This document shows positions 23,851 to 58,376 of a stretch of DNA of 64,000 nucleotides, piece after piece; positions within the stretch are counted from its first letter, which is position 1, and each line of letters opens with the position of its first letter. The DNA lies in contig CACDSN010000004.1 in the NCBI GenBank assembly GCA_902555465.1, positions 14,860 through 78,859 on the forward strand, in the 5' to 3' direction. The notes beneath the pieces were generated by a model. That model saw only the letters and a list, made by a program, of their open reading frames with translations, had not been told where the DNA came from and ran no database searches. The DNA comes from an uncultured Pelagibacteraceae bacterium (GTDB lineage Bacteria > Pseudomonadota > Alphaproteobacteria > Pelagibacterales > Pelagibacteraceae). The position numbers and the translations under genes are program-made.

Positions 23851-24468
23851 ATGACAAAAAGATTAAATTCTAAACATAAAGTAGATAGAAGGCTGAGAGT
23901 AAACTTGTGGGGAAGACCAAAAAGCCCATTTAACTCAAGAGCTTACCCACCAGGTCAGCATGGACAAACTAAGTCAGCTAAACCCTCAGATTTTGGTGTT
24001 CAATTACAAGCAAAACAAAAATTAAAATCTTATTATGGGAACATGAATGAGAGACAATTTAGAAATTTATATAAAAAAGCTATTATGGCAAAAGGAAACA
24101 CAGCCGAGAATCTTATTGGATTATTAGAAAGAAGATTAGACGCAGTTGTATATCGATCTAAATTTGCAAACACGATTTTTTCATCAAGACAATTAATCAA
24201 TCACGGTCATGTAAAAGTTAACGGAAAAAAAGTAAATATTTCAAGTTATCAAGTCAAAGAAGAAGATTCTATTGAAATAAGAGACAAATCAAAACAACTT
24301 GCAATAATTGACGTAGCACTAGCAAATAAAGAGAGAGAAGTTCCCGAATATATACAGTCTGATGAAAAAAATAAAAAAGTTAAATTTGTTAGAATTCCAA
24401 AGTTTGAAGAGGTCCCATATCCAGTTGTGATGGAGCCTAACCTAGTTATTGAATATTATTCAAGATAA
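23851..24468 (+). CDS. rpsD: 30S ribosomal protein S4
   Basis: 205 aa. The N-terminal basic region plus S4 RNA-binding domain (LERRLD.VVYR) is unmistakable. Confidence 0.95.
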
Positions 24469-24474
24469 AAACTA

Positions 24475-25161
24475 ATGAGTCCAATCCAATATGATGGATT
24501 TGAATTAGAACATTTTGATTCAGCATATAATTTTAGAAAATATCAAGTTTCATTAATTAAAGATTATTTAAAAGGAAAATTATTGGAAGTAGGACCAGGA
24601 AAAGGTGGTTTAACATTTTTTTATAGTAAATTTGTAAACAAGCCAACGTTAATTGAACCAGAAAAAAAACTTTACAAATTATTAAAAAAAAAATTTAAAA
24701 ATAAAAATTTCATTATTAAAAACTATACAATTGATAAAATAAAAAATAAATTTGATACTATTATTTATTTTGATGTATTGGAGCATATTGAAAATGATTT
24801 ACACGAAATTATATCGGCAAGGAAAAAATTAAAAAAAAATAAATATTTAATTTTTAGCGTACCAGCATATCAATCATTTTATAGTAGTTTTGATAAATCT
24901 GTAGGCCACTTTAAAAGATATAATAAAAAAGATTTTATATTAATTTCAAAAAAAACTGGACTTAAAATTGACAAATTAATTTACTATGATTCTATTGGTT
25001 TTTTATTACTTGTTTTAAACAGATTTTTTTCTTTAAATCAGACAAGTTTAAAGAAAAAATTATTTTTTTGGAACCTATTAATACCATTATCAAAATTAAT
25101 TGATTTTTTAACATTTAATAAATTTGGTAAATCATTATTGTGTGTATTTAAAAATGATTAA
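24475..25161 (+). CDS. class I SAM-dependent methyltransferase
   Basis: 228 aa. SAM motif I is LLEVGPGKGG, followed by a FDVLEHIEND segment. The C-terminal third is hydrophobic. Confidence 0.65.
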   Translation: MSPIQYDGFELEHFDSAYNFRKYQVSLIKDYLKGKLLEVGPGKGGLTFFYSKFVNKPTLIEPEKKLYKLLKKKFKNKNFIIKNYTIDKIKNKFDTIIYFDVLEHIENDLHEIISARKKLKKNKYLIFSVPAYQSFYSSFDKSVGHFKRYNKKDFILISKKTGLKIDKLIYYDSIGFLLLVLNRFFSLNQTSLKKKLFFWNLLIPLSKLIDFLTFNKFGKSLLCVFKND

Positions 25162-26737
25162 TTACAAAAATATTTTACTTACAATAATTTTTAGTATTTA
25201 TTTTTTAACAGGACTATATTTATCTGTTACAACTGGAATATCTCATGATCAATATCATGAACAATTAAATTGGCAAATAAATTTTCAAGCTATTAAAGGA
25301 TTATTTGAAAATAATGGAAACTATAAAATTCTTACTCAATATTTAGATAGATATCATGGAATTGCATTTCACTATATTTCACAACCGATTCAATTTTTAA
25401 TTTTTGAAAGTGTAGCTAAATTTAATAAAATAACTCTTGAAGGAGCATATTTAATTTCAAGACATGTACCTGTTTATTTAATTTTTTGCTTATCAGGATA
25501 TTTTTTTTACCTGTTAAGTTATAAAATTTCTAATAATAAAAATTTTTCACTTATTTGTATTAGTTTATTTTATCTTTATCCTTATTTGTTTGGTCATGCT
25601 TTAATAAATGGAAAAGATATACCATTTATGTCTATTTGGATTATATCAACATATTTTTTATTCATTCTAATTGAAAAATTTTACCACGATAATGAAATTA
25701 AAATTAAAGAAATTTTTATTATATCATTTTTGACTGCATTTTTAATAAGCATTAGAATTACTGGCATATTAATATTACTTGAATATTTAATTGCAATTAT
25801 CATTTTAACAAACGTAAAAAAAACTAATTTGCTATGGTTTTTAAATGTTAACAAAATTAACTTTCTGTACTTTATAATTTTTTCATTATTTTTTATTTAC
25901 ATATTAAATCCAGTTTTTTGGCTTAATCCTATGGAATTTTTTAATTCGATTTCATGGATGGGCAAGTACTATCATGATATTTGCACATTGACTCTTGGAA
26001 GTTGCATGGATGCATTAAATTTACCCTCAAGCTATATTTTTATTTGGTTGTTTTTTAAACTTCCGTTAATAATTTTACTAGGGTTGATTTTTTTTCCATT
26101 AATTGAAAATAAAATCTTTAATGATGGTTTGAAAACAATTTTTTACGGAATACTTTCTTTTACAGTAATTACGTTATTATTTATTTTTATTATTAAGAAC
26201 GTTGCATTATATGACGAAATAAGACATTTAATTTTTTTAATACCATTTATATTTTTGATAGGACTATATAATATTTTTATTTTAAATAAAAAGTTACTTT
26301 ATTTTTTCTCAATAATTGTAATATTTTTTTTTATTTTTGAAAATATTTCTTTAAAAAATTATCAATATACATGGATAAACTCACTAGCTAAATTTACAAA
26401 CATACAGAAAAATTTTGAGGTTGATTATTGGGGAATAAGTGGAAAAGAACTTAGTAAAAAAATAGTAAATCACTCTGAAAAAATAGATTTTGATAAACAA
26501 AATTGTATTTATGGAGGTCAGTACACCAATATATACTTAGAAAAATTTAATTATAATTGCTTTAAATCTTATAGTGCTCTTGATGCCGCTAAGAAAAGAC
26601 CTTACTATGTATTACAAAATGTTAGAAATATTAAAAGATCTAATCCCAAGGATTGTAAATTGATTTATAGCGAAGGTTATACCTACACATTCATGAAAAA
26701 TAAAATCAAAACTGGAATTTTGTGGTACTGTGATTAA
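25154..26737 (+). CDS. polytopic membrane protein with GT-C-like (ArnT/PMT-type glycosyltransferase) architecture
   Basis: About 527 aa, with more than 10 hydrophobic helices followed by a soluble C-terminal domain of about 130 aa. The ATG at 25154 overlaps the upstream stop (ATGATTAA); the track start is 25124. The family call rests on architecture only. Confidence 0.5.
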   Translation: MINYKNILLTIIFSIYFLTGLYLSVTTGISHDQYHEQLNWQINFQAIKGLFENNGNYKILTQYLDRYHGIAFHYISQPIQFLIFESVAKFNKITLEGAYLISRHVPVYLIFCLSGYFFYLLSYKISNNKNFSLICISLFYLYPYLFGHALINGKDIPFMSIWIISTYFLFILIEKFYHDNEIKIKEIFIISFLTAFLISIRITGILILLEYLIAIIILTNVKKTNLLWFLNVNKINFLYFIIFSLFFIYILNPVFWLNPMEFFNSISWMGKYYHDICTLTLGSCMDALNLPSSYIFIWLFFKLPLIILLGLIFFPLIENKIFNDGLKTIFYGILSFTVITLLFIFIIKNVALYDEIRHLIFLIPFIFLIGLYNIFILNKKLLYFFSIIVIFFFIFENISLKNYQYTWINSLAKFTNIQKNFEVDYWGISGKELSKKIVNHSEKIDFDKQNCIYGGQYTNIYLEKFNYNCFKSYSALDAAKKRPYYVLQNVRNIKRSNPKDCKLIYSEGYTYTFMKNKIKTGILWYCD

Positions 26738-35386: not shown

Positions 35387-36076
35387 ATGTACAGTAAATA
35401 TAATACTTTTTTTAAAGGTGTAGCAGATGTTTTGCCTTTAATGATACCAGTTGTACCATTTGGTATTATTTTTGGCGCAATTGGTATTGAATTAGGATTT
35501 GGTCCATATGTAACATTTGCAACATCTATAATTATTTTTAGTGGTGCAAGTCAAATTGTAATTATACAATTATTATCTGCAGGCGCATCATCAATTGTAG
35601 CAATTACATCATCATCAGTTGTTAGCACTAGGCATTTATTATATGGAGCAGTTTTAAATCAATATTTATTTCATCTTTCAATTTATTGGAAGATAGGATT
35701 ATCCTATTTGCTTACAGATCAAGCTTTTGCTGTTTCAAACGAATATTTTATAAAAAATAATGATAATAATTTTAAACATTACCATCTAGTTGGATCCGGT
35801 TTGACATTATGGATTATTTGGCAGGTTACTACAATTTTAGGAATATTTTTGGGATCAATCGTTCCAGAAGAGCTTGGTCTAACTTTTACAATACCTTTAA
35901 CTTTTTTAGCTTTATTAGTTAATTATCTTAGAAAAATTGATCACTTGATTGTAATAATTTTATCTGGAACATCATCAATTTTATTTTTTGATATTCCATT
36001 TAAGGCATACATAATTATAGCAAGCATGATCGCATTGTTTGGTGCAGCAATTTTAATTAAATTTAATAAACGATGA
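35387..36076 (+). CDS. azlC: AzlC-family branched-chain amino acid exporter subunit
   Basis: 229 aa polytopic membrane protein with an AzlC-like pattern (FGIIFGA..., SGASQ). It is followed by an overlapping azlD-like gene. Confidence 0.8.
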   Translation: MYSKYNTFFKGVADVLPLMIPVVPFGIIFGAIGIELGFGPYVTFATSIIIFSGASQIVIIQLLSAGASSIVAITSSSVVSTRHLLYGAVLNQYLFHLSIYWKIGLSYLLTDQAFAVSNEYFIKNNDNNFKHYHLVGSGLTLWIIWQVTTILGIFLGSIVPEELGLTFTIPLTFLALLVNYLRKIDHLIVIILSGTSSILFFDIPFKAYIIIASMIALFGAAILIKFNKR

Positions 36077-36390
36077 GTATTTGGATTCCTATAATTTTAG
36101 CAGGTTTAATAAACTATTTAACAAGATTGGGATCAATACTTATTATCAACCCTAATAAAATGAATGCCACAACCAAACAAATTTTAAATTATGTACCCTC
36201 AGCAGTATTTCCAGCAATAATATTTCCATCTGTTTTTTTAGATCAAGATTCAAATATTATTCATTTTACAGATCCTAAGATAATAGCATTTTCTGTAGCT
36301 TTTTTAGTTGGAATTTTTACTAAGAATTTAATTGTAACAATTTTTTCTGGCTTACTTACATTTTGGTTTATAATTTTTTTTATAACCTAG
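36073..36390 (+). CDS. azlD: AzlD-family small membrane protein
   Basis: 105 aa with 3-4 helices. It overlaps azlC by 4 nt, the classical azlCD pairing. Confidence 0.7.
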   Translation: MSIWIPIILAGLINYLTRLGSILIINPNKMNATTKQILNYVPSAVFPAIIFPSVFLDQDSNIIHFTDPKIIAFSVAFLVGIFTKNLIVTIFSGLLTFWFIIFFIT

Positions 36391-36986
36391 TAAATTTTAA
36401 ATATTTTTAATGATCTATCATTGCTTGCAACCAAGGAATATAAAATTTTATAATTTTTTGGAAATTTAAATTTCTTTAAATTCACAGTAATTAAGTACTT
36501 CTTATCTAGTTTAATTTTATTTAATTTATTTAAAAACTTTATTAAATCATTTTTTTGTTTAAAAGGGTCAATCAAAATATAACAATTAGATTTAAGTTTG
36601 CTTAAATCAAATTTAAATACATCTGCACAATACAATTTTACTTTTGCACTTTTTTTCTTTACTGATGATCGAAAAACTTCCTTGTCATATTCTATCCCGT
36701 AAGATCTTATATTATTTTTTTTACTCAAGAAATTAACTACCCTTCCATATCCAGAGCCTATATCAACAAAAGATTTAATATTTTCTTTTTTAAGAAATTT
36801 TGAGATTTCATGTAGAAAAAAATATACACATGGAACTGTATCTGTTCTTTTAGAATTATTATGAACTTTAATTTTTGGTAAAAATTCATAGAATTTTGCA
36901 GAATAAATAATTTCAAAAAAAAGAACTTTCAAAAAAATTCTATGGTAAGCTCTTACAAAGTTAAAAAAATAATTACTTTTATTCAT
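36387..36986 (-). CDS. class I SAM-dependent methyltransferase (divergent from the glycan cluster)
   Basis: 199 aa with SAM motif I FVDIGSGYGRV and an acidic residue after beta-2 (YGIEYD). It shares a CTAG stop overlap with azlD. Confidence 0.55.
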   Translation of the reverse strand: MNKSNYFFNFVRAYHRIFLKVLFFEIIYSAKFYEFLPKIKVHNNSKRTDTVPCVYFFLHEISKFLKKENIKSFVDIGSGYGRVVNFLSKKNNIRSYGIEYDKEVFRSSVKKKSAKVKLYCADVFKFDLSKLKSNCYILIDPFKQKNDLIKFLNKLNKIKLDKKYLITVNLKKFKFPKNYKILYSLVASNDRSLKIFKIY

Positions 36987-37064
36987 ATAATTTGATTTTA
37001 ATGTAGAGTATTAAACAAAAATGTGTATCTTGTCTGGAAAATTTTATATAATAAATAAGTATTG

Positions 37065-38276
37065 ATGAAAATCCCAAAAACAATAAAAATCAAGCGTTGT
37101 AGGCTTTGTAAAAATAAAAAACTAAAGCAAATTTATAATTTTGGAAATCATTATGTCAGCAACTTTGTTAAAAAGTCATCGATAAAAAAAGGTGTCAAAG
37201 CTCCTCTTAATCTTGTTTATTGTAAAAAATGCCAACTTCTTCAATTAGAACATTCTGCCCCTCAAGAAATAATGTACAAAAAACATTACTGGTACAAATC
37301 TGGAATTACAAAAACAATGAGAGATGGTCTCAAAGAGTTGTACATTGATATAAAAAAAAATTGCAAAATAAAATCAGGAGATGTTATTTTGGACATTGGT
37401 GCCAATGATGGAACTCTTTTAAAATATTTTAAAAAGGATCGAATAATTACAATTGGTTGTGAGCCTGCTAAAAATTTAAAAGATGAGTTAAAGAAAAATT
37501 GTCATTATATGATTAATGATTTTTGGCATACTAAACATTTAAAAAAAATTCCTTTAAAATATCAAAAACTAAAAGTTGTATCCGCCATTGGTATGTTTTA
37601 TGACTTAGAGGACCCCTCTGAATTTATTAAACATGCAGCTGAGGCATTGGATGATGATGGTATTTTTGTTGCACAATTAATGTGTTCACATTCTATGTTC
37701 AAAACAAATGATTTAGGCAACATTTGTCATGAACATTTAGAATATTATTCTTACAACTCATTAAAATATTTATTTGAAAAAAATGGCTTAAAAATTTTTA
37801 AAATGAGTGAAAACAAAATTAATGGAGGGTCTTATAGAATATATTGTAAAAAAAATATTAAGAAGTCTATAAAATATAAAGAAAAAGCTAATTACAGTGA
37901 AATAATTAAATTTGTAAAAAGGGTAAAAAGAAATAAGCAAACAACCTTAAAAATTTTTAAACAAAGCAAAAAACAAGGAAAAAAGATCTTTCTTTATGGT
38001 GCATCAACTAAAGGAAATACTCTTTTACAATATTATGGATTAACGAATAAAGAAATTCCATTTGCTTCTGAAAGAACAAAAACTAAATGGGGAAAATATA
38101 CTATTGGATCTGGTGTAAAAATATTATCAGAGGAAAATGCAAGAAAACTAAATCCTGATTATTTCTTCGTTATGCCCTATGGATTTATTAATGAATTCAT
38201 CGAACGAGAAAAAAAATGGCTTAAAAACGGAGGAAAGTTTATATTACCATATCCAAAGTTTAAAATATTAAGATAG
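37065..38276 (+). CDS. NDP-hexose C-methyltransferase (TylCIII/EryBIII-like; Zn-ribbon + SAM MTase + C-methyltransferase C-terminal domain)
   Basis: N-terminal 4-Cys ribbon (CRLC...CKKC), SAM motif ILDIGANDGTLL, and a C-terminal Rossmann-like domain (IFLYGASTKGNTLLQY). This matches the Methyltransf_13/_14 architecture. The track start is a TTG at 37062. Confidence 0.75.
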   Translation: MKIPKTIKIKRCRLCKNKKLKQIYNFGNHYVSNFVKKSSIKKGVKAPLNLVYCKKCQLLQLEHSAPQEIMYKKHYWYKSGITKTMRDGLKELYIDIKKNCKIKSGDVILDIGANDGTLLKYFKKDRIITIGCEPAKNLKDELKKNCHYMINDFWHTKHLKKIPLKYQKLKVVSAIGMFYDLEDPSEFIKHAAEALDDDGIFVAQLMCSHSMFKTNDLGNICHEHLEYYSYNSLKYLFEKNGLKIFKMSENKINGGSYRIYCKKNIKKSIKYKEKANYSEIIKFVKRVKRNKQTTLKIFKQSKKQGKKIFLYGASTKGNTLLQYYGLTNKEIPFASERTKTKWGKYTIGSGVKILSEENARKLNPDYFFVMPYGFINEFIEREKKWLKNGGKFILPYPKFKILR

Positions 38277-38285
38277 AATTAAAAA

Positions 38286-39272
38286 ATGAAAAAAAAGAAA
38301 GCATTAGTTCTTGGAGCAACTGGACAAGATGGATCTTATATGATCGATCTCCTTTTGAAAAAAAATTATGAAGTGCATGGTTTATATAGAAAATCTTCTG
38401 TTGGAAATACAAGTAATATTGATCACTTAATTTATGAAAATAAAATTTTTAATAAACGTTTTTTTCTTCATAAAGGTGATTTATTAGACACTGTATCTTT
38501 AAATAATATTATAAATTCTACTAATCCAAATGAAATTTATAATTTTGCAGATCAAGATCACGTAGGGTGGAGCTATGAAATACCATCATATTCTTTTAGA
38601 ACAACAGCATTATCTGTAATAGAAATATTTGAAATACTGAGAAAAAATAAAAAAAAAATTAAATACTTTCAACCTATATCATCAAACATATTTGGAGAAA
38701 CAAACAATTTTAAGCAAAATGAAAAAACAGTACCTGAGCCAAATAGTATATATGCTTTAGCAAAAACCACAGCTTTATATGCGTCTAAAATGTATTCCAA
38801 AGTTTACAATTTACATATTTGTGGAGCAATTTTTTATAATCATGAATCTCCAAAAAGACATATTGATTATGTATCTAAAAAAATTGTTCAAAATGTTTGC
38901 GAAATATTACATGGAAAAAGAAAGTATATATATCTAGGTAATATAAAATCTAAAATTGACTGGGGATATGCCAAAGAATATGTCGAGTATGCTTGGAAAA
39001 TTATGCAAAAGAAAAAACCAGATTTTTATGTAATTGGAACTGGCAAAAACAATTCTGTAGAATATTTCGTTAAAAAATGTTTTGAGTATGTTGGATTAAA
39101 TTATAAAAACCATATTAAAATTGACAAAAATCTTTTCAGACCTTCAAAAACTAGAAATCTTTTAGCTGATACTTCTAAAGCAAAGAAAGATTTGAATTTC
39201 AAAATACAAACGAATTTAGATGATCTTATAAAAATTATGATGGATGATGAGTTAAAAAAATACAATGGATAA
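38286..39272 (+). CDS. GDP-mannose 4,6-dehydratase-family SDR, with Asn at the position of the catalytic Glu
   Basis: 328 aa. GATGQDGSYM, YALAK (YxxxK) and FYNHESPKR align by eye with E. coli Gmd. The STSELYG motif reads ISSNIFG here. Confidence 0.75.
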   Translation: MKKKKALVLGATGQDGSYMIDLLLKKNYEVHGLYRKSSVGNTSNIDHLIYENKIFNKRFFLHKGDLLDTVSLNNIINSTNPNEIYNFADQDHVGWSYEIPSYSFRTTALSVIEIFEILRKNKKKIKYFQPISSNIFGETNNFKQNEKTVPEPNSIYALAKTTALYASKMYSKVYNLHICGAIFYNHESPKRHIDYVSKKIVQNVCEILHGKRKYIYLGNIKSKIDWGYAKEYVEYAWKIMQKKKPDFYVIGTGKNNSVEYFVKKCFEYVGLNYKNHIKIDKNLFRPSKTRNLLADTSKAKKDLNFKIQTNLDDLIKIMMDDELKKYNG

Positions 39273-39960
39273 AAAAATCTCAATTATTTTATCCACATAC
39301 AATGAAGCAACAATAATTAAAGAATCAATTAATAAAATATTTTCAACTATAAAAAATGTTGAAGTGGTAGTGGTAGATGATAATTCAAATGACGGAACTT
39401 TTGAAATTATAAATTCTATTGAGAATAAAAATTTAAAAGTTTTTTCACGTAAATCTAGAGGTTTGGCATCAGCCTTTTTGCTTGGCATGATTAATACAGA
39501 CGGTGATTATGTTGGATGGACTGACTCGAACATGCCGCAACTCACTCATCATTTTAAAGAAATGATCAATAAATTAGACAGTTATGATATTATATTACTT
39601 TCTAGATATATTGATGGAGGAGGTGATAAAAGATCCAAAATGAGAATTTTATCTAGTAAAATTATTAATTTAATTTGTAGACTTTTTCTCGGAAATGAAA
39701 TCAAAGACTATACTAGTAGTATATTTTTAATGAAGAGAAGCGTTTTAACCTATGGCGTTCCAATCGCTTATGGACATGGAGAATTCTTCATTGAATTTTT
39801 ATATAAAATTAAAAAAAATGGAATGAAGGTATATGAAATACCATATGTGCAACCTCCCGATGTTGAGGGAAGCAAGACAGCTTCTAGTATTATTCGTTTT
39901 TTTACTTTAGGATTAAGTTATTTGATAAGAATATTAATAATAAGATTTAGAAAAAACTAA
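39265..39960 (+). CDS. GT2 polyprenyl-phosphate sugar synthase (DPM1/ArnC/GtrB-like)
   Basis: 231 aa with ILSTYNE, VVVDDNSNDGT and a D.D-type segment (TDSN), plus a C-terminal VEGSKTAS (G-S-K) motif and amphipathic tail typical of Dpm1/ArnC-type enzymes. It overlaps the upstream gene by 8 nt. Confidence 0.75.
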   Translation: MDKKISIILSTYNEATIIKESINKIFSTIKNVEVVVVDDNSNDGTFEIINSIENKNLKVFSRKSRGLASAFLLGMINTDGDYVGWTDSNMPQLTHHFKEMINKLDSYDIILLSRYIDGGGDKRSKMRILSSKIINLICRLFLGNEIKDYTSSIFLMKRSVLTYGVPIAYGHGEFFIEFLYKIKKNGMKVYEIPYVQPPDVEGSKTASSIIRFFTLGLSYLIRILIIRFRKN

Positions 39961-39961
39961 A

Positions 39962-40393
39962 ATGATTGAAAGAATTTATCACCAAAAAAAATTATACGCA
40001 TTAATTGTAAGAAGCAAATACAAGAAAAAAAAAGGTATAAGTTTTTTTACTGATAAAAATGCAACTCAACAATTTGGTTATATGAACCATAAAAAAAATC
40101 ATATAATTTTACCTCACAGACATAACAAACGACATTCAAAAATAGATATTACAACAGAAGTAATAATTATTTTAGATGGAATTTTAAGAGTTGATTTTTA
40201 TAATAATAAAGAAAAATACCTTTTTAGTAAAAAACTGTATTCCAATGATTTAATTATGTTATCAAATGGTGGTCACGGCTTTAAGGTTTTAAAAGATGTT
40301 AAAATGATTGAAGTTAAGCAGGGTCCATATTCTTTGTCAAAAGATAAGGTCAAATTTGAAAAGGCAAATGAAACAAAGATTAAAATTAAATAA
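39962..40393 (+). CDS. cupin-fold protein (candidate sugar keto-isomerase/epimerase; WbuC/WxcM-like)
   Basis: 143 aa with a cupin-type pattern (PHRH ... EVIIILDG ... GGHGF). The functional call comes from the fold pattern and gene context only. Confidence 0.4.
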   Translation: MIERIYHQKKLYALIVRSKYKKKKGISFFTDKNATQQFGYMNHKKNHIILPHRHNKRHSKIDITTEVIIILDGILRVDFYNNKEKYLFSKKLYSNDLIMLSNGGHGFKVLKDVKMIEVKQGPYSLSKDKVKFEKANETKIKIK

Positions 40394-41504
40394 AAAACAA
40401 TTTATACCCGTAAGTAAACCAGAAGTATCAAAAAATGATATTAAATCTATCAATAAAGTTTTAAATAAAAGTTGGATATCGTCTGATGGTCCTGAGGTAA
40501 AAATATTTGAAAAAAATTTTTCAAAATTTATAAAACGTAAATATTCTATAGCTGTGTCTAATGGTACTGCAGCACTGGAAATAGCGATAAAAGCATTAGA
40601 TATTAAAAAAAATGATGAAGTAATAATTCCAGATTTTACAATTATTTCTAATGCATTAGCTGTAATTAAACAACACGCAAAGCCAGTTCTTGTTGATTGT
40701 GATCTATTGTCGTGGAACATGAAAATTAGTGAAATTGAAAAAAAAATTACCAAAAAAACAAAAGCTTTACTAATTACTCATATTTACTCATTTTCAAATG
40801 ACATGGATAAGATTTTAAAAATATGTAGAAAACACAAAATTTTTCTAATTGAAGATGCTGCTGAAGTTATTGGTTTAAAATATAAAAATAAATACTGTGG
40901 ATCTTTTGGCGACATCAGTACATTTAGTTTTTATGCAAATAAACAAATTACAACGGGTGAAGGTGGCATGATTTCAACAAATAATTTTAAACTTTACAAA
41001 AAATGTAGTTCTCTGAGAAATTTGTGCTTTGGTAAAAAACAAAGATTTAACCATAGTGATATAGGATGGAATTATAGAATGACCAATATACAAGCCACCC
41101 TAGGTATTAGCCAATTAAAAAGAATAAATTCTACGGTTAAGAGAAAAATGTATATTGGGAATTATTATTTTAAAAAATTATCTAATAACAAGAGTCTCTA
41201 TATGACTCCCCCACAAATAAACCAATTCAAAAATATTTATTGGGTAGTAGGAATTGTGATTAAAAACAAAAAAGTTTTAGCAAGTCAAATTATAAAAAAA
41301 TTATCAAAATACGGCATAGGAGCAAGACCTTTTTTTTGGCCAATGCACGAGCAAGATATTTTTAAAAAAATGAAAATTTTTAAAAAACAAAATTATCCAA
41401 ACTCATCGTATTTGGGTCGCTATGGATTTTATATACCATCATTTTTAAAAATAAAAGACTCTGAAATGAATTATGTAGTTTCAGTAATTAACAAATTATT
41501 TTAA
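40368..41504 (+). CDS. DegT/DnrJ/EryC1/StrS-family PLP-dependent sugar aminotransferase
   Basis: FIPVSKPEVSKNDI...SWISSDGPEVKIFE N-terminus, a FSFYANKQITTGEGG Lys-containing loop, and NYRMTNIQA. The track ORF starts at 40308; the ATG at 40368 fits family N-termini better. Confidence 0.85.
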   Translation: MKQRLKLNKKQFIPVSKPEVSKNDIKSINKVLNKSWISSDGPEVKIFEKNFSKFIKRKYSIAVSNGTAALEIAIKALDIKKNDEVIIPDFTIISNALAVIKQHAKPVLVDCDLLSWNMKISEIEKKITKKTKALLITHIYSFSNDMDKILKICRKHKIFLIEDAAEVIGLKYKNKYCGSFGDISTFSFYANKQITTGEGGMISTNNFKLYKKCSSLRNLCFGKKQRFNHSDIGWNYRMTNIQATLGISQLKRINSTVKRKMYIGNYYFKKLSNNKSLYMTPPQINQFKNIYWVVGIVIKNKKVLASQIIKKLSKYGIGARPFFWPMHEQDIFKKMKIFKKQNYPNSSYLGRYGFYIPSFLKIKDSEMNYVVSVINKLF

Positions 41505-41514
41505 TTTTTATTAA

Positions 41515-43375
41515 ATGTCTTTAAAAGAGAAAATTGGAAATAATTTTTTATTGGATGCCAATATATTAGTTTCGACTATATTGATATTTTCTATCAAGTG
41601 GTTTTTAATTCATATTTATAATCAGGATACTTTATTAAATAAAATTCTATTTGATTATTCAGATTTGTATTACTTCCCATTTATTTTAAATATACTTGAA
41701 CTTGATATAAGCCCACAATATTTAGACAATTACACTCCCAATAAAAACATTCCAATACCTATTTACTCTATTTTATTACATTCTATATTTTTTAAAATTT
41801 TTGGTCTAATCAGTTTTTTTATTTTAGAATTTTTTTTTCTTTTTATCTTTTTAATATTAATTTTTAATATATTAATTAAATGCAATCTAAATTATTATTT
41901 TGCTATATTTTCTACTTTAATTATATTTTTATTGCCATTTACTCTTAAAAATATAGATCTTTTTAACATTAATTTAAATATTATTAGTGGATTATTTTCT
42001 TTTAGGTTTCCTCGGCCGCTAGTAACAAGTTGTTTCTTTTTTTGGGGTATTTATTTAGCAATTTTATATTATAAAAACGATAGACTTAATTTTAAAAATT
42101 CTATTTATATTGGTATTTGTTTTTCTTTGATATTTGCATCATACTATTATAATTTTGTAAATCTTATACTTTTATTTGCCATTATTTTTGTATTTAAAAA
42201 TATAAATGATATTACTTACTTAAGAAAAAATTATAAGAACATACTAAATTCAATAATATTTTTTTTTAATTTTAAGTATTCCATTTTTATTAATTTATTT
42301 TTCATCTGAAAAAGATTTTTTTTTATTAATAGGAGGTATTGAATTAAATTTCGAATTTAAAAAGAAACTTTTAATTCATTTCATAAATAAAATATTTTCT
42401 ATAAAATTTATTGTCTCATTTGTATTATTAACAATAATAATGTTTACTCTTCTAAAGCATGACGATTTTAAAGAAAAAAAAATAATTAAATTATTTTATT
42501 TTATGTTTTTAGCATCAATTATTTCACCTTTTTTTTTCGTATTATTGAGTCCATCAATCAGTGAAATTTATCATTTTTTAAATTGGATTGTAATTACAAC
42601 TATCTTTGTTTCTATTATTTATCTACTTTTAGTTGTAGATTTTGTATTAAAAAAATTTGATATTTTTTCTATTAAATACATAAAATATTTATTTTTATTT
42701 ATAAGTTTTATCGTCATCTTATCCTTTAATTTTTTATATTTTGATAATTTAATTGGTAAAAATGATAAACAAATTAGAAAAGAATACCAAAACCTTCAAA
42801 TATTAGTTGATAATAATAACTTTGAATATCTGTTAACTTTTATTCCTAGAGTTCAAGTTTTATGGATGTTAAAAAATAAAACAAAATTTAATTCTATTGA
42901 ATCTTCTTACTCATCTCTAAATTTTAATCAGCTTGAACAAAATTTTGTTGAAAATTTAAAGTTTCTAAACATAAATAAAATTGATTTTGCTGATATAATT
43001 TCTAATAAAAAAGGTTCATGGAGATATAATAACGAATTTGTTAAATATTTTTCTTGGTACAAATATCAAGCTAACTCACTTATTACATTCAAAAATACAA
43101 ATGATTTTAAATACGATGAAGCAGAATTTATTAAGAAATCAAGTCCTACTAAAACACAACAAATCATTATTCCACAATTTGAAATAAATAGACTTTTAGA
43201 CTTATATGATAAGCTCTCTCTCAATCAAGATCTAAAAAAACCCGATTTGATAGTTTTAAAAAATGATTCTTTGGTTGAAAACTATTCTTTTATCGATCCA
43301 AATATTTACTGTAGGTTAAATAATTTTAAGTTACTTAAAATTTATTATCAAAAAAAATCTGATTTTTGTGAGTAA
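41515..43375 (+). pseudogene. large polytopic membrane protein with GT-C-like architecture, interrupted by a frameshift in a T9 tract
   Basis: The track gives two ORFs, 41515-42309 (frame 1) and 42440-43375 (frame 2). By hand, frame 2 stays open back to 42257 and overlaps the end of frame 1. Removing one T from T9 (42259-42267) yields a continuous 619-aa protein: ...NSIIFFLILSIPFLLIYFSSEKDFFLLIGG... Confidence 0.55.
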
Positions 43376-43445
43376 TAAAAAAAATTTACTTATTACCCTT
43401 GTTCAATTATAAATATTAGCATAAATACTCATGAAAATAACTCAT

Positions 43446-43531
43446 GCCCTCGTGGTGAAATTGGTAGACACAAAGGACTTAAAATCCTTGCCCTTTTGGG
43501 AGTGCCAGTTCGAGTCTGGCCGAGGGCACCA
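43446..43531 (+). tRNA. tRNA-Leu (anticodon UAA), CCA encoded
   Basis: Folded by hand: acceptor GCCCTCG/CGAGGGC, anticodon stem AAGGA/TCCTT, loop CTTAAAA, long variable arm, T-arm GCCAG-TTCGAGT-CTGGC. 86 nt. Confidence 0.9.
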
Positions 43532-57887: not shown

Positions 57888-57916
57888 TTTGACAAATCAA
57901 TTTTTTTAAGTATTTT
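57888..57916 (+). promoter_or_regulatory. candidate sigma70-type promoter for the rpsL-rpsG-fusA (str) operon
   Basis: Consensus -35 TTGACA (57888-57893), 17-nt spacer, -10 TATTTT (57911-57916). It sits in the only sizeable spacer (144 nt) of the ribosomal array. Confidence 0.4.
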
Positions 57917-58004
57917 GTCGATATTTTTTTGGTTGGAATGTAGTACTTTGTACTAAACGCTGCCAAACTAGCCGCTATTCAGTTTCACTCAAAAAAATAT
58001 TATT

Positions 58005-58376
58005 ATGCCTACTGTAAACCAGTTACTGAGAAAAAAAAGATCAAGAGTTAAAGCTAGAAATAAAGTCCCTGCTCTTGAACAATCACCTCAAAAGCGAGGC
58101 GTATGTCTTAAAGTATATACAACTACACCAAAAAAACCTAATTCTGCGCTAAGAAAAGTTGCTCGAGTAAGATTATCAAATGGTCATGAGGTAATTTCTT
58201 ATATTCCAGGAGAAGGACATAACCTTCAAGAGCACTCAGTAGTTTTAATAAGAGGTGGGAGAGTGAAAGATCTCCCTGGAGTAAGATATCATATTTTAAG
58301 AGGAAATTTAGATACACAAGGTGTATCGGCTAGAAAACAACAAAGATCTAAATATGGAGCTAAAAAAGGTAAATAA
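58005..58376 (+). CDS. rpsL: 30S ribosomal protein S12
   Basis: 123 aa with MPTVNQL... and [10 protein letters not shown] motifs. Confidence 0.98.

Follow-up and report, generated by a model that had tools for sequence, protein, structure and literature searches.

A 64,000-nucleotide stretch of DNA from an uncultured Pelagibacteraceae bacterium (GenBank assembly GCA_902555465.1, contig CACDSN010000004.1, positions 14,860 to 78,859 of the forward strand), called the window here in its full length, carries a compact set of glycan genes upstream of a tRNA-Leu(UAA) gene. We propose that a flexible genomic island of SAR11 carries this set as one of its cargoes and that a six-gene operon within it encodes an Arn-like lipid-carrier route for a C-methyl-branched amino sugar; the evidence tips modestly toward this reading. 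In order, the six genes encode a C-methyltransferase, a short-chain dehydrogenase/reductase (SDR), a family 2 glycosyltransferase (GT2), a cupin, an aminotransferase, and a polytopic membrane protein. All lie on the plus strand, and every junction is either an overlap or a gap of at most 10 nt: 9 nt separate the C-methyltransferase and SDR genes, the SDR and GT2 genes overlap by 8 nt, 1 nt separates the GT2 and cupin genes, the cupin and aminotransferase genes overlap by 26 nt, and 10 nt separate the aminotransferase and membrane-protein genes. An initial annotation of the locus, made from the sequence alone, had described this tight packing and listed seven open reading frames (ORFs), all of which were recovered at the same positions; the seventh, a divergent methyltransferase gene preceding the operon, stands 78 nt off.

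A membrane protein with a predicted GT-C fold

The last gene of the operon (41515-43375, plus strand) is split in the window, and its product was studied as the 619-aa protein that is restored by removing one T. In agreement with the initial annotation, which had described a polytopic membrane protein of roughly 620 aa with a soluble C-terminal domain, secondary structure and charge distribution indicate about 11 transmembrane helices, a cytoplasmic N terminus, and a periplasmic C-terminal domain at residues ~415 to 619. Neither the protein nor nine distant relatives matched a Pfam or NCBIfam model, and comparison with PDB sequences, using the single sequence and a 62-sequence profile, gave no chain below an E value of 0.67 by profile. 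By sequence models, the protein falls outside the ArnT/PMT_2 (GT83), STT3 (GT66), and AftA (GT85) families.

Structure prediction was more informative. An AlphaFold2 model built from the 62-sequence alignment reached a predicted local distance difference test (pLDDT) score of 90.6 and a predicted template modeling (pTM) score of 0.90, and in a Foldseek comparison with the PDB all of the first 11 ranks went to GT-C enzymes, which use lipid-phosphate-linked donors; AftA, PglB, ALG3, ArnT, DPY19, ALG12, and Pmt were among them. AftA ranked first (E value of 9e-4, TM score of 0.43) and PglB second, and the matches that followed the GT-C enzymes were unrelated transporters with probabilities below 0.1. 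The model therefore supports a GT-C fold, as the initial annotation had suspected.

The AftA structure paper (PMC10265970) lists, as a hallmark of GT-C enzymes, a catalytic Asp or Glu within the first long loop on the periplasmic side, a loop built of two short helices; the model of the island protein has a first loop of this build with a candidate acidic motif. Here, short helices at residues 40-47 and 51-61 flank the motif F46-D47-x-x-D50 (FDxxD). D50 is invariant among 21 closer sequences and is found in 46 of the 62 sequences of the wider family; position 47 is Asp or Glu in 46 of the 62. The next periplasmic loop contains an RFPRP motif in which R164 and P168 are invariant and R167 is kept in 61 of 62 sequences. 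Further invariant residues are E105 in the membrane domain and E474, Y517, and N520 in the C-terminal domain.

A search of 1.84 billion cluster representatives found 954 relatives, 673 of them at E values of ≤1e-10, giving a family of about 950 clusters as counted at 50% identity. In a locus search with a 21-sequence alignment, all genomes that matched the protein were single-cell genomes of Pelagibacterales (SAR11). The protein represents a GT-C family without curation, one that escapes current domain libraries.

A small glycosyltransferase resembling polyprenyl-phosphate enzymes

The only other glycosyltransferase of the module is the GT2 protein (39265-39960, plus strand; 231 aa; PF00535, 87 bits), which ends in a single hydrophobic helix at residues 208-226, as judged by hydropathy and kept in orthologs. 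Its best PDB match is the Pyrococcus dolichol-phosphate mannose (Dol-P-Man) synthase PfDPMS (5mlz; E value of 4.6e-15, residues 3-196), and the next is ArnC (E value of 4.5e-7, residues 3-161). Likewise, the NCBIfam models for ArnC, AglJ, PgfS, and Dol-P-hexose transferase align over ~160 residues, whereas ordinary GT2 enzymes match the N-terminal ~90 residues only; PpgS is among the weak matches. The motifs SRYxxGG and I[KR]DYTS (IKDxxS) align with PfDPMS and are conserved in the module orthologs. Retention of these acceptor-side motifs and of the C-terminal helix, together with the match to PfDPMS and then ArnC, sustains the earlier placement of the protein among Dpm1/ArnC/GtrB-type enzymes, and we propose that it is a polyprenyl-phosphate glycosyltransferase of the Dpm1/ArnC type. 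At residues 85-87 (39517-39525), the island protein and all four module orthologs have D-S-N, compared with D-A-D in PfDPMS, which is unusual for the position of the DxD motif.

The Arn, Gtr, Lgm/Flm, and mycobacterial systems are known examples of a polyprenyl-phosphate GT2 paired with a GT-C enzyme. In the island, the predicted GT-C fold and the DPMS/ArnC-like GT2 support the ArnC/ArnT-style delivery that the initial annotation had proposed. What the pair would deliver is a separate question. It might carry an ordinary hexose, such as polyprenyl-phosphate mannose, with the other four enzymes feeding glycosyltransferases encoded elsewhere. The nearest solved relative of the GT2 is, after all, a Dol-P-Man synthase, one source labels a close homolog a dolichol-phosphate mannosyltransferase, and what links the two halves of the module is gene context. 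Against these points stand the position of the GT2 gene amid sugar-modification genes with overlapping junctions, the joint travel of all six genes into a different neighborhood in another locus (L003), the lack of any other transferase for the modified sugar within the module, and the conserved D-S-N variant of the donor-binding DxD motif, which fits a nonstandard donor. On balance, we consider delivery of a plain hexose improbable and prefer the modified sugar as the cargo.

Predicted sugar-modifying enzymes

The first operon gene (37065-38276, plus strand) encodes an NDP-hexose C-methyltransferase of the TylC3 type, which has a Zn-binding domain at its N terminus. Three domains score above cut-off, namely, PF08421 (Methyltransf_13, 47 bits), PF13489 (Methyltransf_23, 53 bits), and PF08484 (Methyltransf_14, 111 bits), and the best solved relative is TylC3 (4rv9; E value of 2.4e-42, residues 9-401), in line with the TylCIII-type assignment made initially. 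Also secure is the DegT-family aminotransferase (40368-41504, plus strand), a pyridoxal phosphate (PLP) enzyme that scores 335 bits with PF01041. Its PLP-lysine motif (FSFxxNK) reads FSFYANK, which corresponds in the alignment to FSFFGNK in the perosamine synthase of Caulobacter. That enzyme is the best PDB match (3bn1; E value of 6.5e-68), and ColD, of the dehydrase type, scores far lower. Among NCBIfam models, that of the GDP-linked LegC family matches best.

The SDR (38286-39272, plus strand; PF16363, 302 bits) belongs to the family of GDP-mannose 4,6-dehydratases (GMDs), and its best PDB matches are enzymes of this kind. The catalytic residues of GMD are Thr/Ser, Glu, Tyr, and Lys (PMC3539893). 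The SDR retains Tyr-x-x-x-Lys but reads QPISSNIFG in place of the QASTSELYG of GMDs, so that the catalytic Glu is replaced by Asn. This S-S-N motif occurs in all five module SDRs (the window, L002, L003, L005, and L009), in contrast to the T/S-S-E of E. coli GMD, Arabidopsis MUR1, and a canonical GMD from locus L004 that served as a control. Moreover, the score with the gmd equivalog model TIGR01472 is 324 bits, below the cut-off of 415. The GMD step assumed in the initial annotation is thus called into question: dehydratase activity, and with it 6-deoxygenation, is doubtful, and the sequence suggests instead that the SDR is probably a C4 oxidoreductase of a GDP-hexose, supplying the 4-keto group for the C-methyltransferase and the aminotransferase. 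For the predicted product, a C-methylated amino-6-deoxy sugar, this means that the C-methyl and amino parts stand on clear enzyme assignments and that the 6-deoxy part is insecure, because the Glu is Asn in all orthologs and the score lies below the gmd cut-off. The pathway looks GDP-linked on three independent indications: a GMD-family SDR, an aminotransferase like perosamine synthase and LegC, and a DPMS-like GT2.

The role of the 143-aa metallo-cupin (39962-40393, plus strand) is harder to narrow down. It has no Pfam match, and with TIGR04366 (WbuC) it scores 32.4 bits, short of the cut-off of 42. PF19480 is present in some of its homologs, of which JGI lists one as a WbuC family metalloprotein. 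The HxH..E..H ligands (H52, H54, E66, and H105) are invariant in 44 sequences. Comparison with PDB sequences, by single sequence and by profile, gave chance matches only. The structural model (pLDDT of 82) has a cupin fold and matches WbcA (rank 9), RmlC (rank 19), and the ketoisomerase domain of FdtD (rank 43), among others. These are generic cupin matches that do not separate epimerases from ketoisomerases; the ketoisomerase role raised as a possibility in the initial annotation is not singled out by structure, and we describe the cupin as WbuC-like. Our guess is that the cupin acts as an epimerase or isomerase on the 4-keto sugar.

Finally, the divergent gene on the minus strand (36387-36986) encodes MT199, a class I S-adenosylmethionine (SAM) methyltransferase of 199 aa with subthreshold methyltransferase matches only. 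L002 and L009 have orthologs with 54-59% identity, and L005 and L017 have none. We take MT199 as an accessory gene and can only guess that it is an O- or N-methylase of the sugar.

Conservation of the module and context of distant homologs

The six genes recur in the same order in loci from single-amplified genomes (L002/L007, L005, and L009) and in a near-identical contig (L001), as well as in L003, where they are embedded in a large and different glycan cluster. L006 breaks inside the GT2 gene and has the final genes in the same order, and L017 holds the first four genes before the contig ends. In the comparison of loci with the same flanks, the module appears in L017 and in four single-cell genomes. 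Across loci, with L001 excluded, the five enzymes are 55-90% identical to those of the window, and the GT-C protein is only 38-52% identical. Varied acceptors, or selection acting on a step exposed at the surface, could account for its faster divergence.

More distant GT-C homologs have other machinery for lipid-linked sugars as neighbors, a point in favor of the proposed route. In a marine single-cell assembly (L011, 578-4504; GCA_902607245.1), a homolog with 31% identity directly follows DprE1-like (199 bits) and DprE2-like genes, which suggests a polyprenyl-phospho-pentofuranose epimerase pathway outside Actinobacteria. Homologs in L004 and on the contig of P0101 adjoin WecA-like Glycos_transf_4 and FkbM methyltransferase genes. 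L004 also has an AglJ-like GT2 of 222 aa, the canonical GMD, and, ~8 kb away, a gene resembling UbiA decaprenyl-phosphate phosphoribosyltransferase.

The WecA-like neighbors bear on another account of the module, in which the GT-C protein uses an undecaprenyl-diphosphate glycan, as an oligosaccharyltransferase, ligase, or polymerase would, and the GT2 is a membrane-anchored transferase extending the lipid-diphosphate unit at the cytoplasmic face. The WecA-like and FkbM neighbors in L004 and on the P0101 contig would agree with it, as would the second place of PglB among the structural matches. The best match, AftA, uses a monophosphate donor, however, and the full-length similarity of the GT2 is specific to polyprenyl-monophosphate enzymes (DPMS, ArnC, AglJ, and PgfS). 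The module also lacks a phosphoglycosyl transferase, Wzx, and Wzy, and the L011 homolog next to DprE1- and DprE2-like genes points away from diphosphate donors too. A diphosphate-linked donor therefore seems unlikely to us, and a lipid-monophosphate carrier is preferred.

A variable hot spot next to tRNA-Leu

A metagenome scan anchored on the upstream MoCF gene returned 80 loci, whose flanks were mapped. Between the GGACT gene and tRNA-Leu, these loci have anything from 80-112 bp to >9 kb. Sites in L047, L070, and L063 are nearly empty (80-112 bp), and L043 has a single GT2 gene. L082 and L088 carry a gene of the GT9 heptosyltransferase family, which builds lipopolysaccharide (LPS) core. L037 contains ~5 kb encoding mainly proteins with no assigned function, and L036, L069, and L074 hold >9 kb of cargo without any module gene.

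A different cassette occupies L032 (1244-7796), encoding a C-methyltransferase with 40% identity to that of the window, a 231-aa GT2 with a DCD motif, an FkbM methyltransferase, and a pair of ~415-aa polytopic membrane proteins. The cassette also encodes a possible flippase, 143 aa long and with about three hydrophobic segments. The 417-aa protein of L032 was considered as a relative of the GT-C family and was rejected by profile comparison.

The variable cargo always lies 5' of tRNA-Leu(UAA), between the GGACT gene and the tRNA. Of 10 related loci, 8 have the tRNA gene directly upstream of that for NAD kinase; the distance is 320 bp in L070 and 780 bp in L063. In L014, L015, and L016, which have an NAD kinase identical to that of the window, the short-read contigs stop 
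 70-110 bp upstream of this gene, at the border between tRNA-Leu and the island, which fits assembly breaks at a variable region. In the window, the right border is the tRNA-Leu(UAA) gene at 43446-43531 (plus strand; ARAGORN and Rfam), starting 70 nt past the end of the membrane-protein gene.

On the left, the initial annotation had treated azlC and azlD (35387-36390, plus strand; PF03591 and PF05437) as core genes. In L002, L005, and L009, neither gene lies between the GGACT gene and the module. L017, L018, L019, and L021 do have the pair, which precedes the module in L017 and sequence with no match to module genes in L018 and L019. Other SAR11 genomes thus lack azlCD at the site, and the left limit of the variable interval is accordingly set at the end of the GGACT gene (35386). 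The pair itself is probably an independent variable cassette and not part of the glycan module. With empty sites and cargoes of >9 kb between the same flanks, the variability expected for the interval from azlD to tRNA-Leu is evident, and the interval from the GGACT gene to tRNA-Leu is a true variable hot spot, that is, a flexible genomic island.

The frameshift in the membrane-protein gene

In the window, the gene for the GT-C protein is read as two ORFs (41515-42309 and 42440-43375) because of a +1 frameshift in a run of nine T residues at 42259-42267 (plus strand). Deletion of one T restores a 619-aa protein that is 99% identical to intact metagenome proteins (e.g., P0001). The Tara Oceans contig L001, which is 99.6% identical over 9,386 bp, has eight T residues at this site as its sole gap and encodes the intact 619-aa protein.

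If the frameshift were real, the system in this genome would have lost its last step, as a decaying pseudogene cluster or in the off state of phase variation. Its position in a homopolymer and the presence of five 9-base A or T runs in the gene, tracts of a type able to slip, speak for such an explanation. Indels in homopolymers are also a frequent assembly error, and the split products are recorded solely from the window's own 80.7-kb contig, while most listed members of the 90% cluster of the protein are intact at 619 aa. Considering in addition the eight T residues in L001 and the intact state of all remaining genes, we judge an inactive cluster to be highly improbable. We regard an error of assembly as the likeliest cause of the frameshift, with a private variant as the alternative.

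Proposed route and comparison with known systems

From the gene order, the family and fold assignments, the conservation of the module, and the variability of the locus, which the analysis shows, we infer every step of the following scheme. The GMD paralogue would oxidize C4 of a GDP-hexose, probably GDP-mannose supplied by genes elsewhere in the genome. The TylC3-type enzyme would then C-methylate the 4-keto sugar at an adjacent carbon, with C3 the likelier position, and the WbuC-like cupin may epimerize or isomerize the sugar before the perosamine synthase-like enzyme transaminates C4. The predicted product would be a hexose that is C-methyl-branched and 4-amino-4-deoxy (possibly 4,6-dideoxy), its amine being free and cationic. 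At the cytoplasmic face, the Dpm1/ArnC-like GT2 would load this sugar on polyprenyl phosphate; a flippase, for which the island shows no gene, would move the lipid-linked sugar across the membrane; and the GT-C enzyme would transfer it in the periplasm to an envelope acceptor. Our tentative best guess for the acceptor is LPS lipid A or core, on two grounds: the presence of GT9 genes, of the LPS core family, among the other cargoes of the hot spot, and the analogy with ArnT.

Several points weigh against this scheme. The SDR lacks the canonical catalytic Glu, which makes the first committed step uncertain, and the GT2 has D-S-N in place of the DxD motif for metal and nucleotide-sugar binding. 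The Foldseek values of the membrane protein are modest (E value of 9e-4, TM score of 0.43), and the acidic residues of its first loop are invariant in the closer subfamily only, as seen from D50 in the wider family. The WecA-like neighbors of some distant homologs would suggest undecaprenyl-diphosphate-linked donors. In addition, the GT-C gene is frameshifted in this window, and the island contains neither a flippase nor a nucleotidyltransferase gene.

The initial annotation had recognized no described system here, and the gene set indeed matches no named pathway, with all NCBIfam equivalog scores below cut-off. Four known systems resemble parts of it. The Arn pathway (the ArnA dehydrogenase domain, ArnB, ArnC, and ArnT) puts 4-amino-4-deoxy-L-arabinose (L-Ara4N) on lipid A. 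It shares with the proposed route an SDR oxidation at C4, 4-transamination by a DegT-family enzyme, loading by a GT2 on undecaprenyl phosphate, periplasmic transfer by a GT-C enzyme, and a 4-amino sugar product with a free cationic amine, the last being predicted for the island; ArnC is among the sequence matches of the GT2 and ArnT among the fold matches of the GT-C protein. Unlike Arn, the island donor looks GDP- rather than UDP-linked, and the sugar would be a hexose rather than a pentose. The island adds a C-methyltransferase and a cupin, lacks the formyltransferase/deformylase pair (ArnA-N and ArnD) and ArnE/F, and has a GT-C protein outside the ArnT/PMT_2 sequence family.

The GtrA/GtrB/GtrC systems of O-antigen glucosylation in Shigella and Salmonella likewise combine a small polyprenyl-phosphate GT2 with a fast-diverging polytopic transferase, in a cassette at a variable locus beside a tRNA gene. 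In contrast, the island has no GtrA-type flippase gene, prophage, or integrase, and its sugar would come from a dedicated four-enzyme pathway and not from UDP-glucose. Mycobacterial systems offer a third comparison. AftA, of the DprE1/E2 and AftA/Emb system, is the best structural match, and the homolog in L011 follows DprE1- and DprE2-like genes; PpgS, of the PpgS and Rv3779 system, appears among the weak GT2 matches. Yet the island protein does not belong to GT85 or GT53 by sequence, the host is a Gram-negative alphaproteobacterium, and the sugar would be another one.

The sugar chemistry, finally, recalls GDP-perosamine synthesis (Gmd and Per), which also pairs a GMD-family SDR with a perosamine synthase-like aminotransferase, and the virenose route of Coxiella (Gmd and a TylCIII-type enzyme), in which GDP-linked TylCIII-type C-methylation has been proposed for an LPS sugar (PMC3539893). 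With the latter, the island would share the use of a TylC3-type C-methyltransferase on a GDP sugar in the setting of an envelope glycan. It differs from both routes in its SDR, which has S-S-N without the catalytic Glu and does not reach the gmd cut-off, in that it combines C-methylation with 4-amination, and in the proposed delivery by a lipid-monophosphate carrier and a GT-C enzyme rather than by O-unit assembly.

Composition and other features of the window

The genes flanking the island are core housekeeping genes. The island itself has a GC content of 0.234, compared with 0.301 in the remaining window, the lowest among the window's 7-kb stretches, and K, I, N, and F make up 35-50% of its proteins; the extra richness in AT and in these residues reported initially is thereby quantified. 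As also reported, the island shows no additional ORF that would encode a nucleotidyltransferase, flippase, polymerase, ligase, or integrase. An att-type test for integration found no tRNA-derived direct repeat, nor was an integrase found. This agrees with a description of SAR11 islands as lacking canonical mobile elements (PMC11796062). A promoter scan was at chance level, with 60 matches compared with 60.5 expected.

Two other features of the window were observed. A second low-GC islet (24475-26737; GC content of 0.19-0.22) lies between rpsD (23851-24468) and a glutaredoxin gene; a SAM methyltransferase of 228 aa is encoded there and, after it, a polytopic membrane protein of 537 aa (25124-26737) that has a soluble C-terminal domain and no Pfam match. 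Profile comparison rejected this protein as a relative of the GT-C family; it could be another envelope-modifying transferase. Separately, the Rfam rpsL sRNA/leader family RF01823 was detected at 57915-57999, with 50 bits and above the gathering score, upstream of an ORF at 58005-58376.

Implications for SAR11

SAR11 is the most abundant marine bacterium, and its glycan-encoding flexible islands are thought to shape phage susceptibility. To our knowledge, the envelope glycans of SAR11 are essentially uncharacterized. Against this background, four aspects of the locus appear to be new: a GT-C family without a curated model, the apparent pairing of a GT-C enzyme with what looks like GDP-linked C-branched amino-sugar chemistry, a GMD paralogue that lacks the catalytic Glu, and the setting of the whole as one cassette of a SAR11 flexible island.

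A bolder view joins these aspects, and we offer it as a possibility that is more doubtful than probable. The uncatalogued SAR11 GT-C family may work with interchangeable lipid-phosphate-sugar modules, of which the one described here would install a cationic C-methyl-branched 4-amino hexose by using the GMD paralogue as an ArnA-like C4 oxidase of a GDP-hexose. The module would then be one of many tRNA-Leu cassettes that diversify the cell surface against phages, and it may be switchable by homopolymer slippage.

At a minimum, the locus offers a compact six-gene module that is open to testing, and it defines a GT-C family that is absent from present domain libraries. It also draws attention to a conserved GMD paralogue without the catalytic Glu, the chemistry of which is of interest.

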